A program made the translations under genes and the position numbers. This document shows positions 10,397-28,426 of a DNA stretch of 64,000 bases, in pieces. The stretch comes from an uncultured archaeon (GTDB lineage Archaea > Asgardarchaeota > Lokiarchaeia > Sigyniarchaeales > SOKP01): positions 776,242-840,241 of the forward strand of contig CAZALK010000001.1 in NCBI GenBank assembly GCA_964486045.1, read 5' to 3'. The number at the start of each line of letters is the position of its first letter. Positions within the stretch are counted from its first letter, which is position 1. The notes beneath the pieces are model-generated. The model saw only the letters and a list, made by a program, of their open reading frames with translations, was not told where the DNA came from and did not search any database.

Positions 10397-10915
10397 GTGA
10401 GAACTATCAGAGAAGAAACAGATTATACTGAAGCGATCGAGACCTATAAAAACGAGCCGTTTATTATTTTAGAACCATGGGGTAGGAGTATTGACCATTT
10501 ACGCCTAACAATCATAGGAAAAAAAGGAACTCCCTATGGAGGAGGAAAATTTGTATTTGAAATTAAATTTCCAGAAAATTATCCATTCGCACCCCCTTAC
10601 GCTTATGCTGTTACTTTAATGTGGCATCCAAATATAGACTCCTCAATTCCTCCTGGAAAGCTTAATATATGCTTGGATCTTATTAATCCGGATTTAGTTG
10701 GGAAGGTAGATGCAAGTACCGGAGCTTCAGGGTGGACTCCGAGTAAAACATTAACAAATATAATAGAAGCTTTAAAAGGTATGATGCACTATGAAGCTCC
10801 CTTCTTTAATCCAGGAGATCCACTAAACCATGAGGCTGGAGAACAGTATTTTCGAGCTTTAAAGAAGTTCGAATCTAAGGCTGCGGCATGGTGTAAGAAG
10901 TATGCAATGGACTAA
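10397..10915 (+). CDS. ubiquitin-conjugating enzyme E2
   Basis: GTPYGGGKF, FPENYPFAPP, WHPNI, ICLDL (catalytic Cys codon 10670-10672), WTPSKTL, DPLNHEAG. Confidence 0.95.
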   Translation: MRTIREETDYTEAIETYKNEPFIILEPWGRSIDHLRLTIIGKKGTPYGGGKFVFEIKFPENYPFAPPYAYAVTLMWHPNIDSSIPPGKLNICLDLINPDLVGKVDASTGASGWTPSKTLTNIIEALKGMMHYEAPFFNPGDPLNHEAGEQYFRALKKFESKAAAWCKKYAMD

Positions 10916-12947: not shown

Positions 12948-14531
12948 TCACATAAATGCTATTACAACATTATATTTTTTAATTTCTGATTCTGCTAAAG
13001 CTTTACCTAAAGGACTTAAAGTTATAATATCGTTGCTCTTTATTTTTAAGGAGGTTAGTTTGATATTGGGGTCTTTTAATGAAGGCATATAAGGATTCCA
13101 ATAAATTTCTTTAGTCATGGAGTTAGTTATCATCCATAATTCAGGATCTAACTTGTGTTCTGAAATTTCCATTGCTTTAAAAATGTAATCGACATCTGCA
13201 TCAAAAGGCACAACAATTTGAACATTTTCTTCACCTTCAATTTCCCCACAAGCAAGACAGTCATCTCTTTTTAGAATATGTAGGTGATCAAATTGGCCAT
13301 AGATCCCATTGTAATTGACATATGGAGGTTCCATGGGTGCACCAATATTTCGACCATTGACTCTGAATAGAAGTTTAAGTGCCTCTTGGGATTCAATACT
13401 AGAGATAATAGAACTAACTGTTTGGATTGCTGGTATTTTATTTCCGAGGATATTCTCCATTTCTTCAAATTTGTAATCAGGACCGAATGTTTCATTGATG
13501 TTTGCCTTCCAATCTGCAGTCTCTTTTTCAGTTAGGGATAGTCGTTCTTCTTCTGCTACATTTTCATTGAATACTCGTTCCCGTAGTTTTTCCAATTCTC
13601 CTTGGGCAATTTCTTTTAATTTAAGCACTTCATCGTTTAGATTGAGATCTGGTTTATGTCCATATTTTTTTTCGAATTCAACCTCCGCTTTTATAACACA
13701 GTGATTTCGATTGCGCGGTAGTCCTTTTAAAGTACATGCAGCAACTAATTTATCGTCAGCAGGGGGTATAGGTACTAAACACCTATAACATGGAGTTTGA
13801 TCTAAAATCTCAGGAGCGTACTTCCAGTCAAACACCATCTCAATTTCTTTCCTAAACTTTTCTATTAAAGGATTTATTTCCCTTTCCTTGATTCGTCCAA
13901 TTTCTTCTTCTAATTCATCAATTCTTCTTTGAGCTTTAAAATATTCAGGATATTCCATTTCTGTAATGTCCCATAATCTTGTTTCAACTAAATTCTTGAT
14001 TTCCCTTTCCCTATTTTTATATTCTATCTTGGAATCTTTAGGAATTACAACTTGAACATGCCCTTCAAAGCCTACAGTTCCCCCCTCTACCATTGGTTTT
14101 TTCATTCTAAGACAGATTTTGTTCAAGTCTAGTCTTGCATTAAAATTATCTAAAGCTGCAATTACCACATCTGATTCTTCATAAGCGGACATTGGTAATT
14201 TTTGAAGTTTTTCAAAATAAAAATCAATCTTTACGTATGGATTCATTTCTTTCAATCGTTCAGCTGCAACTTCTGCTTTCGGTCGTCCTTCATCTCCAGG
14301 TCTGAAGAGCATTTGCCGTGATAAATTTGAAGTCTCTATTGTGTCTAAATCGATCAAAATAAGCTTACCAATACCCATCAGTGTGAAGTCCTTAGCAATT
14401 TCGCATCCCAACGCTCCGATTCCTACAATCATAATGCAGCCATTTGAGATAACTTCTTGATCCCAACCATCGATGAGTTGTTGTCTTGCATACATTCGTG
14501 ACTTAACAATATCTTCAATCTTTTCTGTCAT
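12948..14531 (-). CDS. ubiquitin-like-protein activating enzyme E1 (ThiF adenylation domain, catalytic-Cys domain, C-terminal ubiquitin-fold domain)
   Basis: YARQ, GIGALG, DLDTIETSNLSRQMLF, ALDNFNAR, Zn pairs CYRC and CLAC, ACTLKGLPRNRNHC, KIPAIQTVSSII. Confidence 0.9.
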   Translation of the reverse strand: MTEKIEDIVKSRMYARQQLIDGWDQEVISNGCIMIVGIGALGCEIAKDFTLMGIGKLILIDLDTIETSNLSRQMLFRPGDEGRPKAEVAAERLKEMNPYVKIDFYFEKLQKLPMSAYEESDVVIAALDNFNARLDLNKICLRMKKPMVEGGTVGFEGHVQVVIPKDSKIEYKNREREIKNLVETRLWDITEMEYPEYFKAQRRIDELEEEIGRIKEREINPLIEKFRKEIEMVFDWKYAPEILDQTPCYRCLVPIPPADDKLVAACTLKGLPRNRNHCVIKAEVEFEKKYGHKPDLNLNDEVLKLKEIAQGELEKLRERVFNENVAEEERLSLTEKETADWKANINETFGPDYKFEEMENILGNKIPAIQTVSSIISSIESQEALKLLFRVNGRNIGAPMEPPYVNYNGIYGQFDHLHILKRDDCLACGEIEGEENVQIVVPFDADVDYIFKAMEISEHKLDPELWMITNSMTKEIYWNPYMPSLKDPNIKLTSLKIKSNDIITLSPLGKALAESEIKKYNVVIAFM

Positions 14532-14653: not shown

Positions 14654-17600
14654 TTATTTTTTTTTTTTTTCCCCCGCCTCTTTAATCAATCTTTTTAAGT
14701 TATTTACTTCTTCTCTCTCTTTAGACTTTTGTAATTTTTCTTTAAATCCTGCTTCATCTTCCTCTCTTTTTCCTAATTCATGAATGAGTTCTTCTTTAAT
14801 TTTTATTAACTCCCCTACTTTTATACGAAAATCCTTAGATTCCTCTAAAATCTTTATTTTTTCTTGTTCTTCAATTAATTTTTTATTTAATCTCCTTTCT
14901 TCAATCAGTCTAGTTATTTCATCAGCAGATTGACGAACCTCACCAATAGTTCCTTTTAACTTTAGTTCTTCAGTTTTAATTCTATCTTCTTCTCTTTTTC
15001 TTTGTCGTTCTAATTGTTCTTGAATCTCATTGATCCTAATTTCTTCAGCTTTAACTCTTTCTTCCATTACTTTCATATTTTTAATCTCTGTTTCTATGTA
15101 TTTTATTTCTTCATGCCAGCCTATTTCTTCAAATTTTAGTATAGCTTGATCATAATTATCGTTGGCTTTTTTAAAATCATGATACGCTGCTTTTTTTTTT
15201 CCTTCATCAATTAATCTTAAACCTTCATCTTTTGTTTGATCTGAACGTCGCTTAGTTAACAGTAATGCTCTATATTGCCTTTCCTGCTCTCGTTTTAACT
15301 TTTCTTGTTCCAATCTTCTTAATCTGACTTCTTCCTGAAATATCTCATATTCCTTTTGTCTTTCTATTTGCGCAACTTCCTCTAATTGTTTCTTTTCATA
15401 ATAATTAGTTTGTTCTTGTTGTAAATCTCTTATTAGTGCATTCAAATTATTAATCTCGGGTTCCCATCCAATATTTTCTTCTAAAATATTCCTAGCTAGA
15501 ATATATAATGAAATTGCTTTGTCATAGTCAGGGATAGATTGTTTTAAATATTTTCCTGCTTCTTCTAAGAAGGAATAAGCTGATTCTCTTATATTCATTT
15601 GTTTCTGAATAACTTTTTCTCTTTCTTGAACAACTAACAGATGAGCTTTTTTCTTTTCCCTTTCTAGTCTTTGTCTTTCTTCAATTAATAACTGTAAGTC
15701 CTTTTCTTCTTGTATCTTTTCTAATTCTCTCTGAAATTTTAATTCTTCAGTCTTTTCTTTTTCCTTCATAATTAGTTTAACTTTAGTCACCATAGTATTA
15801 ATCGAATCGGTAGGAAAATTGATTTCATTTAAAATAAGCTCTGCCTTTCTATACATTTCGATTGCATGTTGATATTGGGTTTGTTTAAGATGAGATTCCG
15901 CTTTATTTAAAATTTTAAACGCTTGTTGTTTTCTCTCTTCCATCATTGACTTTCTTCGATCACTTTCTTCTAATTGTATTTTTTTTGCTAGTAATCGTTC
16001 TCTTTCAACCTTTGCTATTTCGGTAACCTTTTGCTGTAATTTCCATTCATCTTTATCCTTCTGTAGATAAAATTCAAAGGTTTTTTGTTTTTGCAGTTGA
16101 GATTCATTTTTTCTTTCTAGAACCTTTTGAATCATTTCTCTAATACCCTCAGTTGGGAATCTAATCTCGTTAAGGATTATTTCTGCTGAATAATAATATT
16201 TTAAAGCTTTATCATATTGAGCTTGATTCAAGTAATTTTCAGCAACTTCAAGAAAGTTAAAAGCCTCATTTCTTCTTTTTTCGTTATACTGATGTCTTTC
16301 CCTCTGCTTTTCGTATTCAATTTGTTTAGTTTTTGTCTTTAACTCACTAATTTTTATACCTTCCCGGATTTTTTGCTGGAACTCTCCTTCTTCGCGTTTT
16401 TTTTGAAGTAAAATCTCCAAGTGCTTTTGCTTTCTTAATTTATTTTCTCTATTTCTATCATGAACCTTGTAAATCATTTCTTTAACTGCTCCTGAAGGGA
16501 ATCCTATTTCACTTAAAAATAATTCTGCTTGGCGATATTTATCAATTGCCTCTTCATATTGACCTTTAATTAAATCCTTTTCAGCATCGTCCATTAAACT
16601 AAATGCCTTTGTTTTTTGGTGTTCTAACAAATTTGACAAATCTTCACGTTTTAGAATTTCAATTTGTTGTTTTCGTAATCTTTCTTTTTCTCTTTGAATA
16701 TTACGATTGATACTTGCTTGGAATTTCTCCTCTTCCTTTTGCTGCTCACTTAATAAGTGTTGTTCCCTTTCTTTCTTCTTTTCTATCTCTCTTTTTCGAT
16801 CATTAATAATATCTATAGTTTCATAGAATAATTTCAAATATTCTCCAGTCCACCCAATTTCTGTTAATATTACTATAGAATTATTGTATTTTGTCAAAGC
16901 GTTATCAAAATTATTATCTTTAAGCAATCTATCTCCATCTTCAATTAGTTTAAATGCTTCCTCTTGTTTAATTAAATTTTGGGTTGAAGTAAGTTTTTTT
17001 CTTTCTCTAAATTGTACCTCCTTTATTGCTATTTCTTTTTCTCGTTGTTGTTGTTGATCTATTTTTTCTAAGAAATCAAATCGAGCTTTATCATCTTCTA
17101 TTGCCTTTTCTAACGATCTCTGTTTCAATAAATCGTTTTCCCTTTTCTTGCTTTGAATACCTAGAATTGTTTCCTGAATGATAGGGATTTCATCAATCCA
17201 TTGGATTTGAGCAAAAATATTTGTTACCTCAAAATAAATTTCCAACGCCTTATCATAATTCGTCTGTGAGAGAAAAATTTGAGCATCATCTAATAATTTA
17301 AAGGCATATTCTTTTTGTTTCTCACGATAAGCAAGTTCTTTCTCTCGGTTCCTTAGAACAATTTGTTTATGCTTTAAATCTTCTTGCTGGATCCTTATCT
17401 CTTTTGAAATTTGTTCCTGAAAAGATTTTTCCAACTTTTCTTGTTCTAAAACTTCACTTAAATCTCTCTGCTTTTTTAATTCTGCCTTCCGCTTCCTTTC
17501 TTCAATTACATTTATGGCGTTTTCGATTAACTTTATTTCATCACCCCATTCAATTTCTTCAAAAAGTACTGTGGCATTTTGATATAGCTTTAGTACCTCG

Positions 17601-20600
17601 TTAAAATTACCTTTTTCCAAATGAGATTGTGCTATTTCTAATATGTTGAAGGCTTTCTCTTTCTTCTGTTCAGTTATTAGTCTAATGTCTTCCTGTTTTT
17701 TCAGTTTTTCCTGCTTTTCAATCATTTTTTGCTGTTCTATTCTAACTTTTTCAACAATTTGTTGTTGAAATATCAACTCCTCCTGTTCCTTCCTAGTCTC
17801 TAGCTCCAATTGCGTTATAATGTTTAACTCCTCGGTTCTCCTTTTTTCCTGAATTTTCTGAATCATTCCTTGTATAATTTCAGCTGGAAAACCAATTTCA
17901 TTTAGCAACAATTCAGCCTGTCGATATTTTTTTATTGATTGGTCATATTTACCTTGGTTCAATAAATTTTCTGCATTGGTCATAATTCCAAATGCTTCTG
18001 ATTTACGAGTTTCAATGCTTGATAATGTTATCTCGCGTTTTTGTAGTAGAATTTCTTTAGATTTAATTTTTTCTTGTTCTTTTTTCAAATAATCGGCTAT
18101 TTTTGCTTGAAATTGCTCTTCTTCTTTCTGATGATTCAAAGCTAATTTAAATTCAGTTTGGTGTGCTTTTTCTTTTTCTGACTTCCTCTCTTGTATAGTG
18201 CCAATCGTATCATTTAAGATTTTTAAGTAGTGTGTTCCCCACCCAATTTTATTTAATAATTCTATGGCTTCACGATAATTTTTTAAGGCTTCATCATAGT
18301 TTTCTTCGATAAGTAACGCTTCTCCTGCTTCAATCAGTTTAAACGCTTCTTGTTCTTGAGTTAAATTCTGATCAGATATAAATTTCTCCCGTTCCAGGAA
18401 TTTAAACTCCTTTATAGCATCCATCCTTTCTCTTTCTCTATGATATTTAACTTGCTCTACAAAAGCCCTTTCCTTAACCTCCTTCTTAATAGCTTTTCGT
18501 AACTGCTTTTGTTTATATAATATTCTTTCTTTCTTTTTCTTCTCAATATCTTGTATTGCTTGTGTTAATAATGGAATCTCATCTACCCATTGAATTTGGG
18601 TAAATATGCTTATTACTTTATGATAATTTTCAAGAACTTCATCGTAATTTCCTTGCGAAACTAATATTTGAGCATTTTCTAACAAATTAAACGTTTCTTT
18701 TTTTCTTTCTTCACGATAAGCAAGTTCTTTTTCTCTTTCTCTATGTATAATCTCTTTTTGTTTTAATTTATCTTGGTGTGATTTTAACTCTTTTGTTAGC
18801 TGTTCTTGAAAATTTTTTTCTTGCTTATCTCTTTCTAAGTCTGCTTGTATTTTGATCTGCTCCTGTAATGCTGCTTCTCGTTTTTTATTTTCAATTTCTA
18901 TTATTGAATTTTGAATTAAGCTAATTTCATCTTTCCATTGAGCATCAGCAAAGAAGTTAATAGAGTATTGCAATATTTCGATAGATTCGTCATATTTTCC
19001 TTTAGATGCTTCTTCTTTTGCTTGTTCAAGTAACTTAAATCCTGCTTTCCTTCTTTCTTCTTGATATTCTAAATCTTCTGCTCGTTCTTTTAATTCAATC
19101 TCTTTTTTCTTTATTTTTTCACGTTCTTGTTGTAAATTTTTAATAATTTGCATTTGAAAAGCGTCTTCTTCCCTCTGTCTTTCAATGGCTTCCTGCACCT
19201 GTTTTTGTTCTATTAATTTTTGATTTTTTCGTAACTCTTCAACTTCTAAAATTGAATTTTCAATTACTGCTATTTCATCTTTCCACTGAATTTCTGCAAA
19301 AATATTTCCTGCATTTTGATATGCTATAATTGTATTTTCATATTCTCCCTTTTTTATGAAATTGAGAGCAGAATCTAAATATTCGAATGCAACCTTTTTT
19401 CTCTGCTGAAAATAAATCAATTCTTTTTCTTTATCCTTTAATATAATCTCTTTTTGTTTTATACGCTTACGTTCCTTGTTTAACTGATTAACAATCTGAA
19501 TTTGAAATTCTAATTCTGATTTTTCTCGCTCCTCTAATTTCTGCTGAACTTCATATTGTTTCTTAAATTGTGAATTTTTAATTTTTTTGACATTTGAAAT
19601 CGTGTTATTGATTGTAGAAATATATGTTTCCCATCCAGGTCCTAAGTTTTCAATTAGATTTAGAGCTTCATTGTATTCACTAATGGCATCGTCATAATGT
19701 TTTGCTCGTAAGATGGTATCAGCATTACTTAAAATATTAAATAGTTCTTTCTCCTTCTTAGCTTCTCCAATTCTTTTTTCTTCATGCAGACTTCTTCTCG
19801 AATCTAGTTCCTTAGCTGATTCTAATATTTGCTCTTGTTGTTTTCTAGATATAGATTTCTGAAGATTTTTTAAATCTCTTTCCCTCCTTTGTCTCAACAA
19901 TACTGCATTCTTTTCTCGATCCTTCTTCTTTGTTATGTCTTCTATTAAATTAATAATTGGATGGATATATGAATCCCAATCTATGGATTTAAATAATTCA
20001 ATGGCGTTCTCAAATTTTTGAATAGCTTGATCATAATTTTTCTCCATTTCGAGTCGTTTACCAATATCTATGAGATTAAATGCATCATTTTGAATAGCTT
20101 CCTCTTTTTTCTTTTTTTCTTCAAATTTAATTAACCTTTCTTTCCCTAACTCCGATTCGGATTGTTTAGTTTTCTCCACAATAATTTTTCCTTCTATTTC
20201 GGTAACTGCTTGTTTCTGCTGAGATTGGAATTTTTCAAATTGATCTTTGTCTTTTTTAAGCTTTTCAATAATAACATTTATTTTTTTAGTTTGTTCATTC
20301 CAACCAATCGAATTCAACAATTCTATAGCTCTTTCATAATTCATTATCGCTTGATCATATTTTCTTTCTTTTTCAAAGATTTTTGCTTTATCAATATGAG
20401 CAAATGCATGGTCTTGTTTTTCTTCTTCTTGTTTTTTCCTTGATCTATATCGAGCTATAGATTCCGCTTTATCAACGCTTGTTTTTTGCCCGAACATATC
20501 CACAATTTCAATGTTTTTATCCTCTAATCCCTTTAGATATTCCTCAGATTGACTCAAGTCTTGAGGTTGTTTCAATTTCGTTAGTTGTTCTCTTTTTGAA

Positions 20601-21019
20601 ACCTCACTAAGATTTTTAATTTTTAATATAACATTTTCTAATTGACCCTCGGACCAACCAGATTGAGATAATAAATTAATAGCAGATAAATATTGCTTAA
20701 TAGATTCTTCAAAAAAACCATCAGATTCTAATTTTTTAGCACCTTCTAATAAAGCGAATGCTTGGTCTTGTAATTGCTCTGCTTGAGCTCTTATCTGAGT
20801 CTGTTGGTATATTTTCTCTTGTTTCAAAGAATTTTTTAGTTCATCTATTCTGTCATAGATATCATTAACTCTATGCATTAAATATCCGCTTTGCTTTAGG
20901 AACTCTACAGCATTTTCATAGTTTGATATTGCTTGTTTTGGATTTTTCTCTTCTTCAAATTTTTGAGCAAGTTCTAAAAATTTAATAGCTTCTTTAGCTA
21001 ACTCTTCTGGATTTTGCAT
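14654..21019 (-). CDS. giant helical repeat protein (18 MIT/TPR-like units separated by E/K/Q/R-rich coiled-coil segments)
   Basis: 2121-aa ORF. The unit AF.LL..A......G.Y..AI..Y..A...L..I[GQ][WF] can be counted 18 times at roughly 116-aa spacing. No TM segment or signal peptide is visible. Confidence 0.85.
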   Translation of the reverse strand: MQNPEELAKEAIKFLELAQKFEEEKNPKQAISNYENAVEFLKQSGYLMHRVNDIYDRIDELKNSLKQEKIYQQTQIRAQAEQLQDQAFALLEGAKKLESDGFFEESIKQYLSAINLLSQSGWSEGQLENVILKIKNLSEVSKREQLTKLKQPQDLSQSEEYLKGLEDKNIEIVDMFGQKTSVDKAESIARYRSRKKQEEEKQDHAFAHIDKAKIFEKERKYDQAIMNYERAIELLNSIGWNEQTKKINVIIEKLKKDKDQFEKFQSQQKQAVTEIEGKIIVEKTKQSESELGKERLIKFEEKKKKEEAIQNDAFNLIDIGKRLEMEKNYDQAIQKFENAIELFKSIDWDSYIHPIINLIEDITKKKDREKNAVLLRQRRERDLKNLQKSISRKQQEQILESAKELDSRRSLHEEKRIGEAKKEKELFNILSNADTILRAKHYDDAISEYNEALNLIENLGPGWETYISTINNTISNVKKIKNSQFKKQYEVQQKLEEREKSELEFQIQIVNQLNKERKRIKQKEIILKDKEKELIYFQQRKKVAFEYLDSALNFIKKGEYENTIIAYQNAGNIFAEIQWKDEIAVIENSILEVEELRKNQKLIEQKQVQEAIERQREEDAFQMQIIKNLQQEREKIKKKEIELKERAEDLEYQEERRKAGFKLLEQAKEEASKGKYDESIEILQYSINFFADAQWKDEISLIQNSIIEIENKKREAALQEQIKIQADLERDKQEKNFQEQLTKELKSHQDKLKQKEIIHREREKELAYREERKKETFNLLENAQILVSQGNYDEVLENYHKVISIFTQIQWVDEIPLLTQAIQDIEKKKKERILYKQKQLRKAIKKEVKERAFVEQVKYHRERERMDAIKEFKFLEREKFISDQNLTQEQEAFKLIEAGEALLIEENYDEALKNYREAIELLNKIGWGTHYLKILNDTIGTIQERKSEKEKAHQTEFKLALNHQKEEEQFQAKIADYLKKEQEKIKSKEILLQKREITLSSIETRKSEAFGIMTNAENLLNQGKYDQSIKKYRQAELLLNEIGFPAEIIQGMIQKIQEKRRTEELNIITQLELETRKEQEELIFQQQIVEKVRIEQQKMIEKQEKLKKQEDIRLITEQKKEKAFNILEIAQSHLEKGNFNEVLKLYQNATVLFEEIEWGDEIKLIENAINVIEERKRKAELKKQRDLSEVLEQEKLEKSFQEQISKEIRIQQEDLKHKQIVLRNREKELAYREKQKEYAFKLLDDAQIFLSQTNYDKALEIYFEVTNIFAQIQWIDEIPIIQETILGIQSKKRENDLLKQRSLEKAIEDDKARFDFLEKIDQQQQREKEIAIKEVQFRERKKLTSTQNLIKQEEAFKLIEDGDRLLKDNNFDNALTKYNNSIVILTEIGWTGEYLKLFYETIDIINDRKREIEKKKEREQHLLSEQQKEEEKFQASINRNIQREKERLRKQQIEILKREDLSNLLEHQKTKAFSLMDDAEKDLIKGQYEEAIDKYRQAELFLSEIGFPSGAVKEMIYKVHDRNRENKLRKQKHLEILLQKKREEGEFQQKIREGIKISELKTKTKQIEYEKQRERHQYNEKRRNEAFNFLEVAENYLNQAQYDKALKYYYSAEIILNEIRFPTEGIREMIQKVLERKNESQLQKQKTFEFYLQKDKDEWKLQQKVTEIAKVERERLLAKKIQLEESDRRKSMMEERKQQAFKILNKAESHLKQTQYQHAIEMYRKAELILNEINFPTDSINTMVTKVKLIMKEKEKTEELKFQRELEKIQEEKDLQLLIEERQRLEREKKKAHLLVVQEREKVIQKQMNIRESAYSFLEEAGKYLKQSIPDYDKAISLYILARNILEENIGWEPEINNLNALIRDLQQEQTNYYEKKQLEEVAQIERQKEYEIFQEEVRLRRLEQEKLKREQERQYRALLLTKRRSDQTKDEGLRLIDEGKKKAAYHDFKKANDNYDQAILKFEEIGWHEEIKYIETEIKNMKVMEERVKAEEIRINEIQEQLERQRKREEDRIKTEELKLKGTIGEVRQSADEITRLIEERRLNKKLIEEQEKIKILEESKDFRIKVGELIKIKEELIHELGKREEDEAGFKEKLQKSKEREEVNNLKRLIKEAGEKKKK

Positions 21020-21208: not shown

Positions 21209-23179
21209 ATGGTAAAAAACGAAATGGATTTAAAAAATAAGAATATCCTTATTGATTTTGAGCCAATTTCAAGAAGAGTTTTACTTACAAACGATATATC
21301 AATCTATGATCTTCTTTCAGAATTGAGCATCCGAATAAGATCAATATGCGGTGGTGCAGGTACATGTGGAAAATGTAGAATTTTAATCCAAAAAGGTAAA
21401 GAATATTTAATTCCTCCAGGTAAAACTGAGAAAAATTTCTTAGATCAAGGAGAATTGAAAGAAGGATGGCGTTTAGCTTGCCAATCTAAAATAGATATGA
21501 GAAAACTTCATTCCCTAGAAAAAGTTACTACACCACAATTTCGAATATTCCTACCAAATGAGTTAATCCTTGAGGAATTTAATATCCTTACTTCTGGAAT
21601 GAATAATGAGGTAAGATTATTTCCCATGGTTAAGAAATATTATCTTGAAGTAAATAGACCTTCTTTAAAGGATCCAAAAGCGGATGTTGAAAGAATTATC
21701 ACTAAACTCCTTTCAGTGGATGAGGATTTAAGGAATATAAATCAAATTAATGTCGATTTCAAATTGTTAGATGTAATACCTAAATTATTAAGGGAAAATA
21801 ATCATAAAATAACAATTGCGTTATGGAATAATAATACTATAATAGCATGTGAGCCGGGAAACACGGCTAATGACAATTATGGAGTTGCATTTGATATCGG
21901 AACCACAACAGTAGTAGGATATTTACTTAATCTAAATAGCGGCAAAATCCATGCTTTAAGTTCATGTTTAAACAGCCAGACTGCGTATGGGGAGGATCTA
22001 ATAACTCGAATAACTCTCATAAAAAATGATAAAAAGAATCTTGATGTACTAAACTCCACCATAATTTCTGATATGAATGAAATCCTCTCGAAAGTATGTA
22101 TTAATGCCAGCGTTGACTCCTCTCAAATTTACGAAGCGAGCATTGTGGGAAATTCAGTAATGCACCACATTCTTTTAGGAATAGACCCTATTAACATTGG
22201 ATTAAGCCCATTTATTCCTGTGATACAAAAAGGTTTGAATGTAAAAGCTGAAAAACTAAACATCAACATTCTTAAAAATGGAAACATTTACACTGCTCCA
22301 ATTATCTCTGGCTTTGTGGGAGCTGATACCATAGGTGTAATTTTATCTTCAAAAATATACGAAAAAAAAGACCTAACTCTAATTATTGATATTGGAACTA
22401 ATGGGGAGATCATTATTGGGAACCGTAAAATTTTAGCAGTTGGATCATGCGCTGCAGGTTCAGCATTAGAAGGTGCTCATATAAGTAGTGGTATGAGAGC
22501 AGCTGCAGGTGCAATTGACACTTTAAAAATAATACCCGAAACTTTTGAAGTTAATTTTTCAACAATAAAAAAGAGAAAACCATTGGGAATTTGTGGATCT
22601 GGGTTGGTTGATGCTGTATCCGAAATGTTACGATCAAAAATTCTTACTCGGAGTGGTAATTTTAATAAAGAATTCCTTAATCATGAGAGAATTAATAAAA
22701 CAGAAAAAAAAACTGAATTTATTATAGTTAAAAAAAATGAAACTTCTCTCGGTAAAAACATAACTATCACTCAAAAGGATATAAGACAAATTCAAATGGC
22801 AAAAGCAGCATTTTATTCTGGAATGAGGCTAATTTTAAAACATTTGGGTGAAAAATTAGTACTAAAACAAGTATATTTAGCAGGAGCTTTTGGAAATTAT
22901 ATTAACAAGGGAAATGCCAAATTTATTGGAATGATACCTGATATTCCGGATAATAAAATATACCAGATAGGCAACGCAGCTGGAATTGGTGCTCAACATT
23001 GTTTGTTAAACAAGACTTTAAGAGTTAAAGCTAAAAATTTACTAAAGGAAATTCAATATATCGAAATTGCTGTAAAGGAAGATTTTCAAAAAGAATTCGC
23101 CGAAGCTATGTATTTTCCTCACTTGAATCTAGATTTATTTTCCAGCTTGAAAGAGTATGAAGAAATCCCAAAAAGATAA
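21209..23179 (+). CDS. RACo/ASKHA-type reductive activator of corrinoid proteins with N-terminal [2Fe-2S] domain
   Basis: CGGAGTCGKC...RLAC, FDIGTTTV, YGEDLITRI, GFVGAD, DIGTNGE, GICGSG, LAGAFG, GNAAG. Confidence 0.92.
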   Translation: MVKNEMDLKNKNILIDFEPISRRVLLTNDISIYDLLSELSIRIRSICGGAGTCGKCRILIQKGKEYLIPPGKTEKNFLDQGELKEGWRLACQSKIDMRKLHSLEKVTTPQFRIFLPNELILEEFNILTSGMNNEVRLFPMVKKYYLEVNRPSLKDPKADVERIITKLLSVDEDLRNINQINVDFKLLDVIPKLLRENNHKITIALWNNNTIIACEPGNTANDNYGVAFDIGTTTVVGYLLNLNSGKIHALSSCLNSQTAYGEDLITRITLIKNDKKNLDVLNSTIISDMNEILSKVCINASVDSSQIYEASIVGNSVMHHILLGIDPINIGLSPFIPVIQKGLNVKAEKLNINILKNGNIYTAPIISGFVGADTIGVILSSKIYEKKDLTLIIDIGTNGEIIIGNRKILAVGSCAAGSALEGAHISSGMRAAAGAIDTLKIIPETFEVNFSTIKKRKPLGICGSGLVDAVSEMLRSKILTRSGNFNKEFLNHERINKTEKKTEFIIVKKNETSLGKNITITQKDIRQIQMAKAAFYSGMRLILKHLGEKLVLKQVYLAGAFGNYINKGNAKFIGMIPDIPDNKIYQIGNAAGIGAQHCLLNKTLRVKAKNLLKEIQYIEIAVKEDFQKEFAEAMYFPHLNLDLFSSLKEYEEIPKR

Positions 23180-23441: not shown

Positions 23442-23966
23442 ATGTCAAGTTTTAAACTGAAAGTATTACTTACTGGCGCGGCTGCCGTCGGTAAGACAAG
23501 TCTGGTTCAAAGATTCATCAAAAAAAGATTCCAAGCTAATTACAAATTAACAGTCGGAGTTGACATTTTGACTAAGGATGTAGAATTCAGACCTGGGGAA
23601 ATAGCAACTTTAAGTATTTGGGATATAGGAGGTCAACAACGTTTCGAATTTATACGGAGCACTTTCTATAAAGGAGCTGCAGGAGCATTATTAGTTTTTG
23701 ATTTAACCCGAGAACAAACATATACAGAAACAAGGAAATGGCTCACTGAGATAAAACAATTCGCTGGAGAGTCAATCCCGTTTGTTTTAATTGGAAACAA
23801 AGTGGATTTAGTCGAAGATGTAGGAGAAGTAATAGATAGGGATGAAGTTCGTGCATTTGCAGAAAATGAAGGTAGTATATATATTGAAACATCTGCTAAA
23901 ACGGGAATTAATGTTGATGAAGCTTTCACTGAGCTTACAAGTCGAATTATTGATTTCAGAACATAG
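23442..23966 (+). CDS. Rab-like small GTPase (no C-terminal prenylation motif)
   Basis: G1 GAAAVGKTS, G2 TVGVD, G3 WDIGGQ, FYKGA, LVFDLT, G4 NKVD, G5 ETSAK. Confidence 0.95.
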   Translation: MSSFKLKVLLTGAAAVGKTSLVQRFIKKRFQANYKLTVGVDILTKDVEFRPGEIATLSIWDIGGQQRFEFIRSTFYKGAAGALLVFDLTREQTYTETRKWLTEIKQFAGESIPFVLIGNKVDLVEDVGEVIDRDEVRAFAENEGSIYIETSAKTGINVDEAFTELTSRIIDFRT

Positions 23967-26458: not shown

Positions 26459-28426
26459 TTATTTCTCTAAAAGTTTTTGTAATTCTTGGATTTGAATCTC
26501 AATTTTTTCTTCATATTCAATAATTTTTTTCTTTTTTTCTTCAAGTTCTTCCGCAGAAATTTCTCCCATTAGTTCTTTCATATCAAAGTCTAATTTCATT
26601 TTATATAAGTCTGCCTTCTTTAATTTTAGATCAATAAGGGTTTTTTTTGCATGTTCGGCTTGTTTTTTGTCAATAACAAGTGGTGTTTCCTCTGATTCTA
26701 TGAGTTCTTTTGAGAGTCCTTCTAAATCTTTGGATTCTTTTGGTATTTTTTCTGATTCTATGGATTCATGTTTTTCAATAGATTCTTTTATTTTTGAGGC
26801 TATGGGTGGTTGGGGTGGAGTACTTTGGCTGTTTTTTTCAAAGAGTTCGGAAGGTCGAGATGGTGATCTTACTTTTAATGATTTATCACTAACTTTACTT
26901 TCATCCGGTTTTTTTGGTTGATCTAATTCCATTTTACCTATTTGATTAGGTTCATTCTTAACATGACCGTAAGATGATGTTTTAAGTTTTGATTTAGCAC
27001 CTTTAGGGACTACTCCTATAGTTTTTGGTCTGATTTTTACCATATAATCTTCAGGATTTAATTTTAATCCTACTTTTACAACATCAGCTTTGAGGTTCTT
27101 CTCGATTATTTTATCTTGTAATCTTTTACTAGATTTTATCCATTGTCTAGAAGTATCTTGCTTTATATTTGGTGATACTGGTACCTTATCCTCTATATCT
27201 TTTTTTTGCGTTGATGTTGATGGTGGTAGTTTGGGTGCTGGAGGTAAAGCTACTTCTAAGGTTTCATTTTGGATTGAAGGTTTGGGTTTGCTAACATTTT
27301 CCGATATTTCTTCTTTTTGTGATTCTATATATTTTTCAGAATTATCGGATTCTATTGGATGCGCAGGAGTTGGCTGGGGTGCTCCAACTTGTTCTAACAT
27401 TATCTTGATTTTTTGGGATTTCTCATAAAATTCTTTCCCTAATGAATCATCTCCTAAATCTAAACATAGATAGCTAATTTTATCAAATAAAAAAGCAGCT
27501 TTTTCAAAATTTGCACTTTTTAATGACTTTGTAGCTTCTTCGATTAACTGATCTCTTTCTAATAGTGGTTTTAATAAGGGAGAGATTTCAGCACTCATTT
27601 CTAAAATATCGGCAATAATTTGAATCATTTTGTCTCGATTTTCTGGTTTCTTCGCAATCATAGAGTATGATTTTAAACCTAGAATTCTTTCTATATTAGC
27701 GGGATTTTCTGCTCCACCTAAATCTTGTTTATTTCCAATTACTGCTATGTGGGCATGAGGTGCTTGGTCTTTTATCAGTTCCAAAAAAAATTTGCTTTTT
27801 TCAACATTTACTAAAGTAGAATCCGTAATCAAAAGTACGGCATCACTTCCTTTAATGAAATTACTCCAAAGATAGCTAAATTGTTCTTGTCCAGCAAAAT
27901 CCCATAGATGAAAGTGTAATTTCCCAATTCTAACAGTAGCGATATCACCTGTAATTGTAGGTATATGTTGTATGGGTATCTCTTCCGCTCTTATTAATCG
28001 AGTTATTGTTGTTTTCCCCACTCCTGAAAATCCAACTAACGATATCTTTGGACGGAGGTTTTTATGGTTTACATCTACTATGGGATCAAAAACTTCAAAA
28101 GTTTTTGCATCAAAGCGATGTTGTAAGATTTCTTCAAATAAATCAACAAATTCCCTTCTACATTTTACTAATTCCTTTTTTATGTTCTCAAATTTATCTG
28201 TTAAGCCAGTAACAAATAAAAACACCAAGCCCAGGCTCTTTTTCGTTATATATGATACTCTAAACTTATAGTAATCATGAAATTCAACAGTATCTTCTTC
28301 ATTGAATGATTCGTCGTCCAATATTTCTGTAACAAGATAATTTAAAGCTTCATGTTTAAGTGCTTTGCCAAAATGTCTATAATATAAAAGTTCGTCTCCT
28401 TTATATATGAAAACTTGTCTTAATAT
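26459..28426 (-). CDS. longin-like domain + Arf-like small GTPase + helical bundle + Pro/Lys-rich linker + coiled-coil fusion protein
   Basis: G1 GFSGVGKTT, HIPTI, WDFAGQ, NKQD. The frame extends 35 codons upstream of the TTG at 28321 to an ATA at 28426 (ILRQVFIYKGDELLYYRHFG), which completes a longin-like N-terminus. Confidence 0.8.
   Translation of the reverse strand: MLRQVFIYKGDELLYYRHFGKALKHEALNYLVTEILDDESFNEEDTVEFHDYYKFRVSYITKKSLGLVFLFVTGLTDKFENIKKELVKCRREFVDLFEEILQHRFDAKTFEVFDPIVDVNHKNLRPKISLVGFSGVGKTTITRLIRAEEIPIQHIPTITGDIATVRIGKLHFHLWDFAGQEQFSYLWSNFIKGSDAVLLITDSTLVNVEKSKFFLELIKDQAPHAHIAVIGNKQDLGGAENPANIERILGLKSYSMIAKKPENRDKMIQIIADILEMSAEISPLLKPLLERDQLIEEATKSLKSANFEKAAFLFDKISYLCLDLGDDSLGKEFYEKSQKIKIMLEQVGAPQPTPAHPIESDNSEKYIESQKEEISENVSKPKPSIQNETLEVALPPAPKLPPSTSTQKKDIEDKVPVSPNIKQDTSRQWIKSSKRLQDKIIEKNLKADVVKVGLKLNPEDYMVKIRPKTIGVVPKGAKSKLKTSSYGHVKNEPNQIGKMELDQPKKPDESKVSDKSLKVRSPSRPSELFEKNSQSTPPQPPIASKIKESIEKHESIESEKIPKESKDLEGLSKELIESEETPLVIDKKQAEHAKKTLIDLKLKKADLYKMKLDFDMKELMGEISAEELEEKKKKIIEYEEKIEIQIQELQKLLEK

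Follow-up and report, generated by a model that had tools for sequence, protein, structure and literature searches.

We analysed a 64,000-nucleotide window from an uncultured archaeon of the Lokiarchaeal order Sigyniarchaeales (assembly GCA_964486045.1, contig CAZALK010000001.1, positions 776,242 to 840,241) and found that one of its genes, here called the rod gene, encodes a real and unusual MIT-derived repeat protein of this one order. Its product of 2121 amino acids (aa) is predicted to form a long all-helical rod carrying small three-helix knobs. The N-terminal head is MIT-like by several tests, whereas the units that make up the rod are best called degenerate.

The protein contains 18 units, the number given in a preliminary description of the locus, starting at aa 11, 87, 205, 313, 426, 544, 660, 776, 892, 1009, 1123, 1239, 1355, 1472, 1586, 1700, 1814 and 1933. 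The spacing of about 116 aa claimed there fails for units 1 and 2: successive starts lie 76, 118, 108, 113 and 118 aa apart and thereafter 114-119 aa. Self-identity of the protein reaches 0.166 at a lag of 116 and 0.201 at a lag of 463 (mean 0.088, standard deviation 0.010), a periodicity far above background and not due to chance. The lag-463 signal stems from an overlooked duplication of a four-unit block, units 7-10 being 43% identical to units 11-14, which also accounts for the presence of 18 units in this genus as against 14 in several sister genera. Across 556 rod units from 54 homologues, the hairpin pattern and conserved turn described earlier hold (A 83% and F 86%, Y 92%, then I 74%, Q 41% or G 36%, and W 67% or F 26%). 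No transmembrane segment was detected in the 2121-aa protein, the highest 19-residue Kyte-Doolittle mean being 0.94. Within the genus there are 27 orthologues, full-length at about 2120 aa and sharing 52-71% identity.

An MIT-like head and degenerate rod units

The resemblance of unit 1 to MIT domains, already proposed from its sequence, is supported by both profile and fold. The AlphaFold model of the head (units 1-2) has a pLDDT of 96.7, and MIT domains make up seven of its nine top structural matches, led by the calpain-7 tandem MIT and Sulfolobus Vps4. Calpain-7 is the best fold match (Z 11.6, root-mean-square deviation (rmsd) 6.4, 129 residues aligned), with close superposition on the Sulfolobus Vps4 MIT 2w2u (Z 11.1, rmsd 1.2, 62 of 74 aligned) and on VPS4A 2jq9 (rmsd 1.6 over 60 of 71). 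It is also the best long natural profile match and the sole one to cover both units (E 3e-9, positions 3-137 of 143); TPR profile matches to the head span about 25 residues. VPS4A residues 5-71 matched the unit 1 profile at E 2e-4, and hhalign of unit 1 against 29 Asgard Vps4 MITs gave P 94% and E 1e-7 over 61 columns with a 9-residue deletion, so that the similarity of unit 1 extends to the three-helix MIT profile. In the source proteome, unit 1 is the best non-Vps4 match of the Asgard Vps4-MIT profile, at a weak 15.2 bits. Its E22 (100% conserved) and R57 (88%) occupy the sites of an Asp (97%) and an Arg (100%) in Asgard Vps4 MITs, and an Asp-Arg salt bridge has been reported in calpain-7 MIT1 (10.1101/2022.10.18.512775). 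The acidic helix-1 residue is also retained in units 2-4.

Compared with known MIT proteins (PF04212; Vps4/VPS4A/B, Sulfolobus Vps4 2w2u, MITD1, spartin, katanin p60), the protein shares the stand-alone three-helix bundle, present in both AlphaFold models, and unit 1 matches across the full set of three helices, with the acidic residue of helix 1 and the Arg of helix 3 retained. It differs in that unit 1 is nine residues shorter between helices 2 and 3, in that units are repeated 4-25 times on continuous helices, in the absence of an ATPase, protease or kinase domain, and in that the rod units have lost the hallmarks. The N-terminal pair of MIT-type bundles recalls tandem-MIT adaptors such as calpain-7, LIP5/Vta1, ULK3 and Atg1.

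In units 5-18 the MIT acidic site is L, I or V in 80% of the 556 rod units and the helix-3 Arg motif is absent; neither the full three-helix MIT profile nor the Asp/Arg pair is found there. Against the Asgard Vps4 MIT, hhalign covered 9-54 columns of the rod units, mainly the hairpin (P 0.2-91%), and the units superimpose on TPR-type and designed bundles as well as on MITs. No single unit reaches the curated Pfam MIT cut-off of 30 bits, the best scoring 25 (the Vps4 of the source genome scores 60), and the whole protein exceeds it with a summed 93 bits. A PDB sequence search with the rod units returned just short designed-TPR matches, an NCBIfam search of the protein gave nothing near any cut-off, and atlas searches gave just weak, unnamed bacterial clusters. 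Some Bacteroidota proteins (P0100, P0131 and similar) look secreted and carry hairpin repeats of 57-60 aa, half the archaeal rod period; we rejected them as homologues, the profile match running through the hairpin alone.

Architecture, ends and distribution of the rod family

The AlphaFold model of units 6-8 (alignment of 50 rows; pLDDT 87, pTM 0.36) places helices at 2-29, 32-48, 52-144, 148-164, 168-261, 264-280 and 287-312. Each helix of about 93 residues comprises the third helix of one unit, a charged spacer and the first helix of the next, and a reverse helix of 17 residues per unit is the sole segment running back; in the model, the short helix thus makes up a small bundle with the tail of the preceding long helix and the first part of the following one. 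Because single helices of this length join the bundles, a contiguous TPR solenoid is excluded by the model, and the long periodic rod proposed earlier gains support from these continuous helices. Three or more stacked contiguous 34-aa repeats, as in a TPR solenoid, were not found at the observed spacing of 76-119 aa. The protein resembles TPR proteins in its hairpin sequence pattern, but its hairpins are isolated and closed by a third helix and form no superhelix. We consider this beaded-rod architecture very probable, although the low pTM leaves the overall path of the rod unfixed. At 0.15 nm per residue the net advance would be about 11 nm per unit, so that 18 units, if extended, would measure about 0.2 µm, with a family range of about 0.05-0.3 µm.

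The spacers consist of 60% E/K/Q/R and 47% E/K/R and lack Gly and Pro. In a single alpha-helix test, charge pairs were enriched at i,i+3 (z 5.1) and not at i,i+4 (z -0.8), and large hydrophobics exceeded 20%. The earlier label of a coiled-coil rod is at most tentative: spacer hydrophobic periodicity peaks at 3.14 and 3.42 rather than 3.5, and no clean heptad was seen. A hydrophobic stripe is conserved but discontinuous, and midway between bundles an F (86%) and an I (74%) are conserved across the 556 rod units. In spectrin rods, helix C runs on into helix A of the next repeat, and the present protein likewise has three-helix bundles in series. Unlike spectrin, however, its bundle spans about 55 aa with a middle helix of just 17 residues, and about 60 aa of each long helix lie outside the bundles; the contiguous bundles of about 106 aa with three long helices that define spectrin repeats were not found, nor was any Pfam spectrin match at E 0.01.

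Of 134 other genomes in the source family, 107 contain rod matches; homologues are present in all four families of the order (numbered 1 to 4 below), and none was found at E 1e-8 in 226 sampled genomes from other Asgard orders. Orthology of the family-2 to family-4 proteins was assigned by best match, architecture and neighbourhood. Two cultured species carry unannotated homologues, P. syntrophicum DSAG12_01966 (985 aa) and L. ossiferum NEF87_004398 (1077 aa); contigs from one RNA run cover the former, although such contigs cannot show transcription. Homologues have 4, 7, 9, 10, 14, 17, 18, 20 or 25 units, a number that seldom varies inside a genus, although some genera have two classes; in one genus, just one of seven genomes has a homologue. 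Units are gained and lost inside the rod, while units 1-4 and the tail are retained, units 3-4 even in 4-unit homologues of 500 aa. The linkers between units 2 and 3 and between units 3 and 4 vary freely in length, whereas 497 rod intervals all measure 113-119 aa. All homologues end in an amphipathic helix and a lysine run by pattern match across the four families; a tail-only hidden Markov model did not find the family-2 and family-4 tails, so that cross-family conservation of the terminal helix rests on the pattern match. Seven family-2 homologues (L071:7422-10388, L072:7973-11206 and five more) carry four or five Y/F-x-P-S/T-F/Y motifs about 30 aa apart in a low-complexity linker close to the N-terminus, which are candidate short linear motifs.

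A paralogous rod of 1761 aa (C8:164034) is present in the source genome and across the order, and lies 1.5 kb from a Rab-like gene in the source genome, where 6.5% of all genes have a small GTPase within 2.5 kb. At this locus (G000 C8:162026-169319) the paralogue stands downstream of genes for a Rab-like GTPase, a proteasome alpha subunit and a 133-aa protein, an order retained in several genera, and its length ranges from 590 to 2547 aa across the order. In family 4 (L083, L084, L158), an IFT52 GIFT-like gene separates two tandem rod paralogues, and at two of these three loci they follow a roadblock-longin gene in the same orientation.

Table 1. Features of the rod gene and its neighbours, with positions in the 64,000-nucleotide window.
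Feature	Position	Strand	Evidence
Rod protein gene, 2121 aa, ATG start	14654..21019	(-)	Open reading frame
Unit 1 (aa 4-65), shortened MIT-type three-helix bundle, E22 and R57	20825..21010	(-)	hhalign, fold, conservation
Tandem head, units 1-2 (aa 4-146), 76 aa apart, one 52-residue helix between them (model)	20582..21010	(-)	AlphaFold
Units 3 and 4 (aa 198-370), conserved bundles, variable linkers of 103-121 and 93-115 aa	19910..20428	(-)	
Rod, units 5-18 (aa 419-1985), degenerate bundles, continuous ~93-residue helices, spacing 113-119 aa	15065..19765	(-)	AlphaFold, units 6-8
Four-unit block duplication, 2 x 463 aa, units 7-10 and 11-14	16286..19063	(-)	43% identity and unit mapping
Charged C-terminal tail (aa 1986-2121)	14657..15064	(-)	Alignment, 27 family homologues
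Terminal amphipathic helix, then lysine run	14657..14722	(-)	Pattern common to all four families (M 88%, K 89%)
E1, ThiF family, UBA1-like, downstream neighbour	12948..14531	(-)	Nearest solved structures
RACo-type ASKHA/Fe-S gene, divergent neighbour	21209..23179	(+)	
Rab-like small GTPase, 2.4 kb upstream, divergent	23442..23966	(+)	

Genomic neighbourhood

The downstream neighbour is an E1 gene whose nearest solved relatives are UBA1 enzymes (E 3e-41), co-oriented with the rod gene across a gap of 122 bp exactly as first described. The special link to E1 suggested by this arrangement was not borne out, and the adjacency looks secondary. E1 directly adjoins the rod gene at 25 of 27 genus loci, and RACo does so equally on the other side, for which reason we rejected genus-level adjacency as evidence of a link; metabolic neighbours are likewise as well conserved as E1 within the family. 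In six genera of the family and in family 3, a subtilase gene on the opposite strand separates rod and E1, so that the direct 122-bp arrangement probably arose by loss of this intervening gene. E1 lies 30-50 kb from the rod gene in three single-contig family-2 genomes; in four family-4 genomes, all with rod homologues, a search at E 1e-60 did not detect it. Scanning the gap for sigma-70 promoters and terminators gives no information in an archaeon.

An orthologue of the Rab-like GTPase gene of the window lies 0.3-6 kb upstream of the rod gene in seven family-2 genomes, one family-4 genome and the majority of family-1 loci. Each of the four families has members with a roadblock-longin gene (270-300 aa) at the 5' end of the rod gene or of a tandem rod paralogue; in P. 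syntrophicum its product, DSAG12_01965 (L071:6344-7150), is the protein of PDB 8YQG/8YQK. Rab and roadblock-longin are older neighbours than E1, the roadblock-longin gene having been lost in the source genome. The rod synteny block also includes RACo, a gene of the histone-deacetylase family and a PDCD5-like one; as RACo shows, such a block can keep unrelated metabolic genes together as well.

Several further observations concern these neighbours. Six E1 orthologues (L004, L016, L017, L031, L032, L068) carry, at codon 41-42 in the glycine-rich loop, an in-frame 30-nt insertion that contains a stop; it occupies the same site in two genera, can form a hairpin, has bulge-helix-bulge-like flanks and is absent from the E1 of the window. 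An archaeal intron within a protein-coding gene is the probable explanation. In the Rab orthologues L045:2629-3180 and L064:11477-12028, comparable 30-nt insertions containing a stop lie near WDIGGQ, at two sites that differ slightly, and there are hints of further cases. In family 2 (L052, L053, L055-L057, L059-L062), a different Rab-like gene of about 200 aa lies within a few kb of E1. The region is rich in eukaryotic-signature genes, with E2, Rab-like and Arf/Roc-domain genes at window positions 10397-10915, 23442-23966 and 26459-28321, and an HMGL-like gene (homocitrate/isopropylmalate synthase type) appears split into two open reading frames (1125-1787 and 2037-2453).

Competing explanations and meaning of the rod

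We tentatively favour, at somewhat less than an even chance, the explanation that the protein is a soluble, length-tunable long-range tether or scaffold with binding functions at its two ends, because a protein whose ends are conserved while its middle gains or loses whole units looks like a spacer or tether. The MIT-type head, units 1-2 aided by units 3-4 on their flexible linkers, would grip short helical or extended MIM-type tails, of which ESCRT-III tails are the most obvious candidates. The degenerate units 5-18 would stiffen the rod and set its reach, and the C-terminal amphipathic-basic helix may anchor it on a membrane or at a site marked by a small GTPase. The likeliest pathway partners would be the neighbouring Rab-like GTPase and the probable roadblock-longin regulator, not E1. 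Golgin and EEA1-type tethers are very long charged helical rods with functional ends in a small-GTPase context; the likeness is one of analogy; no sequence relation was found, and the present rod has regular MIT-like knobs and lacks a transmembrane segment or a GRIP or FYVE domain. The more specific proposal of a tether family that arose by tandem MIT amplification and links a Rab-like GTPase module to ESCRT-III over a lineage-specific distance of about 50-300 nm is, in our judgement, quite unlikely; if true, the rod would be a prokaryotic functional analogue of golgin/EEA1 tethers.

Several points weigh against the tether explanation. Every binding step of the rod is one that we infer. Z-scores of 10-12 are reached by helical bundles without kinship and are not decisive, and Foldseek returned nothing at E <0.001 for either model. 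The Rab gene is unlinked to the rod gene or distant from it in some genomes (G006, G082, G038), no roadblock-longin gene was detected in the source genome or in 129 of 131 family-1 genomes, and linkage of the rod to Rab may be passive because the synteny block also retains the RACo, deacetylase-family and PDCD5-like genes. Asgard Rabs are not generally encoded beside their regulators (PMC10933270). Finally, the tether explanation names no partner surface for the F and I conserved in mid-spacer, which need one.

A self-assembling structural fibre or a cytoskeletal cross-linker is an alternative that we regard as unlikely. Chains might pair side by side, the mid-spacer F/I packing on a partner helix or a half-staggered bundle, or join head to tail with the terminal helix inserted into the MIT-type head, or run alongside a filament, for instance Lokiactin. 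The intolerance of the rod spacing to insertions and deletions fits this, as do the mid-spacer residues, which stand in heptad phase with bundle cores 77 residues apart, and the spacing of the terminal helix, which equals that of helical MIMs such as the IST1 motif. The repeat of about 11 nm equals two actin subunits, a numerical coincidence only. Points against a fibre are the lack of clean heptad periodicity, a six-fold variation in unit number, family-2 homologues in which a disordered linker takes the place of much of the rod, and a terminal helix whose Met and Ala stand at the sites of Arg and Leu in MIM1.

A strong version of the preliminary description would make all 18 bundles ESCRT-III-binding MIT sites along a scaffold. 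The long periodic rod stands, but 18 equivalent sites are weakened and now seem very improbable, since units 5-18 lack the acidic/Arg pair, being hydrophobic at the acidic position, and match the Vps4 MIT mostly over the hairpin, and since homologues with just four units exist. In favour of such sites, rod units superimpose on 5lb7 (Z 10.0, rmsd 2.2, 67 aligned) and on 2w2u (Z 9.3, rmsd 1.3, 63 aligned), the summed Pfam MIT score is high, and several rod bundles are conserved like the head within the genus; the equally good fit to TPR-type or designed bundles and the sub-threshold single-unit scores count on the other side.

A role as a ubiquitin-pathway adaptor, co-expressed with and binding E1 and perhaps the nearby E2, is highly improbable. 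MIT domains are joined to ubiquitin enzymes in USP8 and AMSH, and a USP8 entry is among the structural matches of the head. The co-oriented adjacency to E1 extends from the genus to several other genera, the E1, HAD and E2 genes stay within about 11 kb in two families, and the paralogous rod adjoins a proteasome alpha gene. Set against this are the intervening subtilase, the distance of E1 in family 2 and the failure to find it in rod-bearing family-4 genomes, and no ubiquitin-binding family was found in Pfam or NCBIfam. An ordinary TPR solenoid is scarcely tenable: although the hairpins fit the TPR pattern, summed Pfam TPR scores exceed the cut-offs and the L. ossiferum homologue is named a TPR protein in UniRef, the hairpins are never 34 aa apart, do not stack in the model, and superimpose on solenoids beyond one unit just at rmsd >40.

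No description of the rod family was found in a literature search, which covered literature other than subscription papers, and the accessions of the cultured-strain homologues appeared neither there nor in the supplements of PMC9834061; the section of the Asgard-ESCRT survey PMC10936438 that was covered mentions no multi-MIT protein. MIT bundles set on a continuous-helix repeat represent an unusual route to a rod of adjustable length. Rab-like GTPases are numerous in Asgard archaea, which also have ESCRT-III, and it is difficult to assign partners to these GTPases by genome layout (PMC10933270). In this setting the rod family adds an MIT-type protein other than Vps4 as a candidate ESCRT-III partner, and a candidate effector encoded next to a conserved Rab and to a roadblock-longin protein that has been crystallised. 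Two cultured species carry homologues, in which the proposed tether could be tested. Because the family is apparently confined to one Lokiarchaeal order, it bears on cellular complexity evolving in parallel and not on the direct ancestry of a eukaryotic protein.

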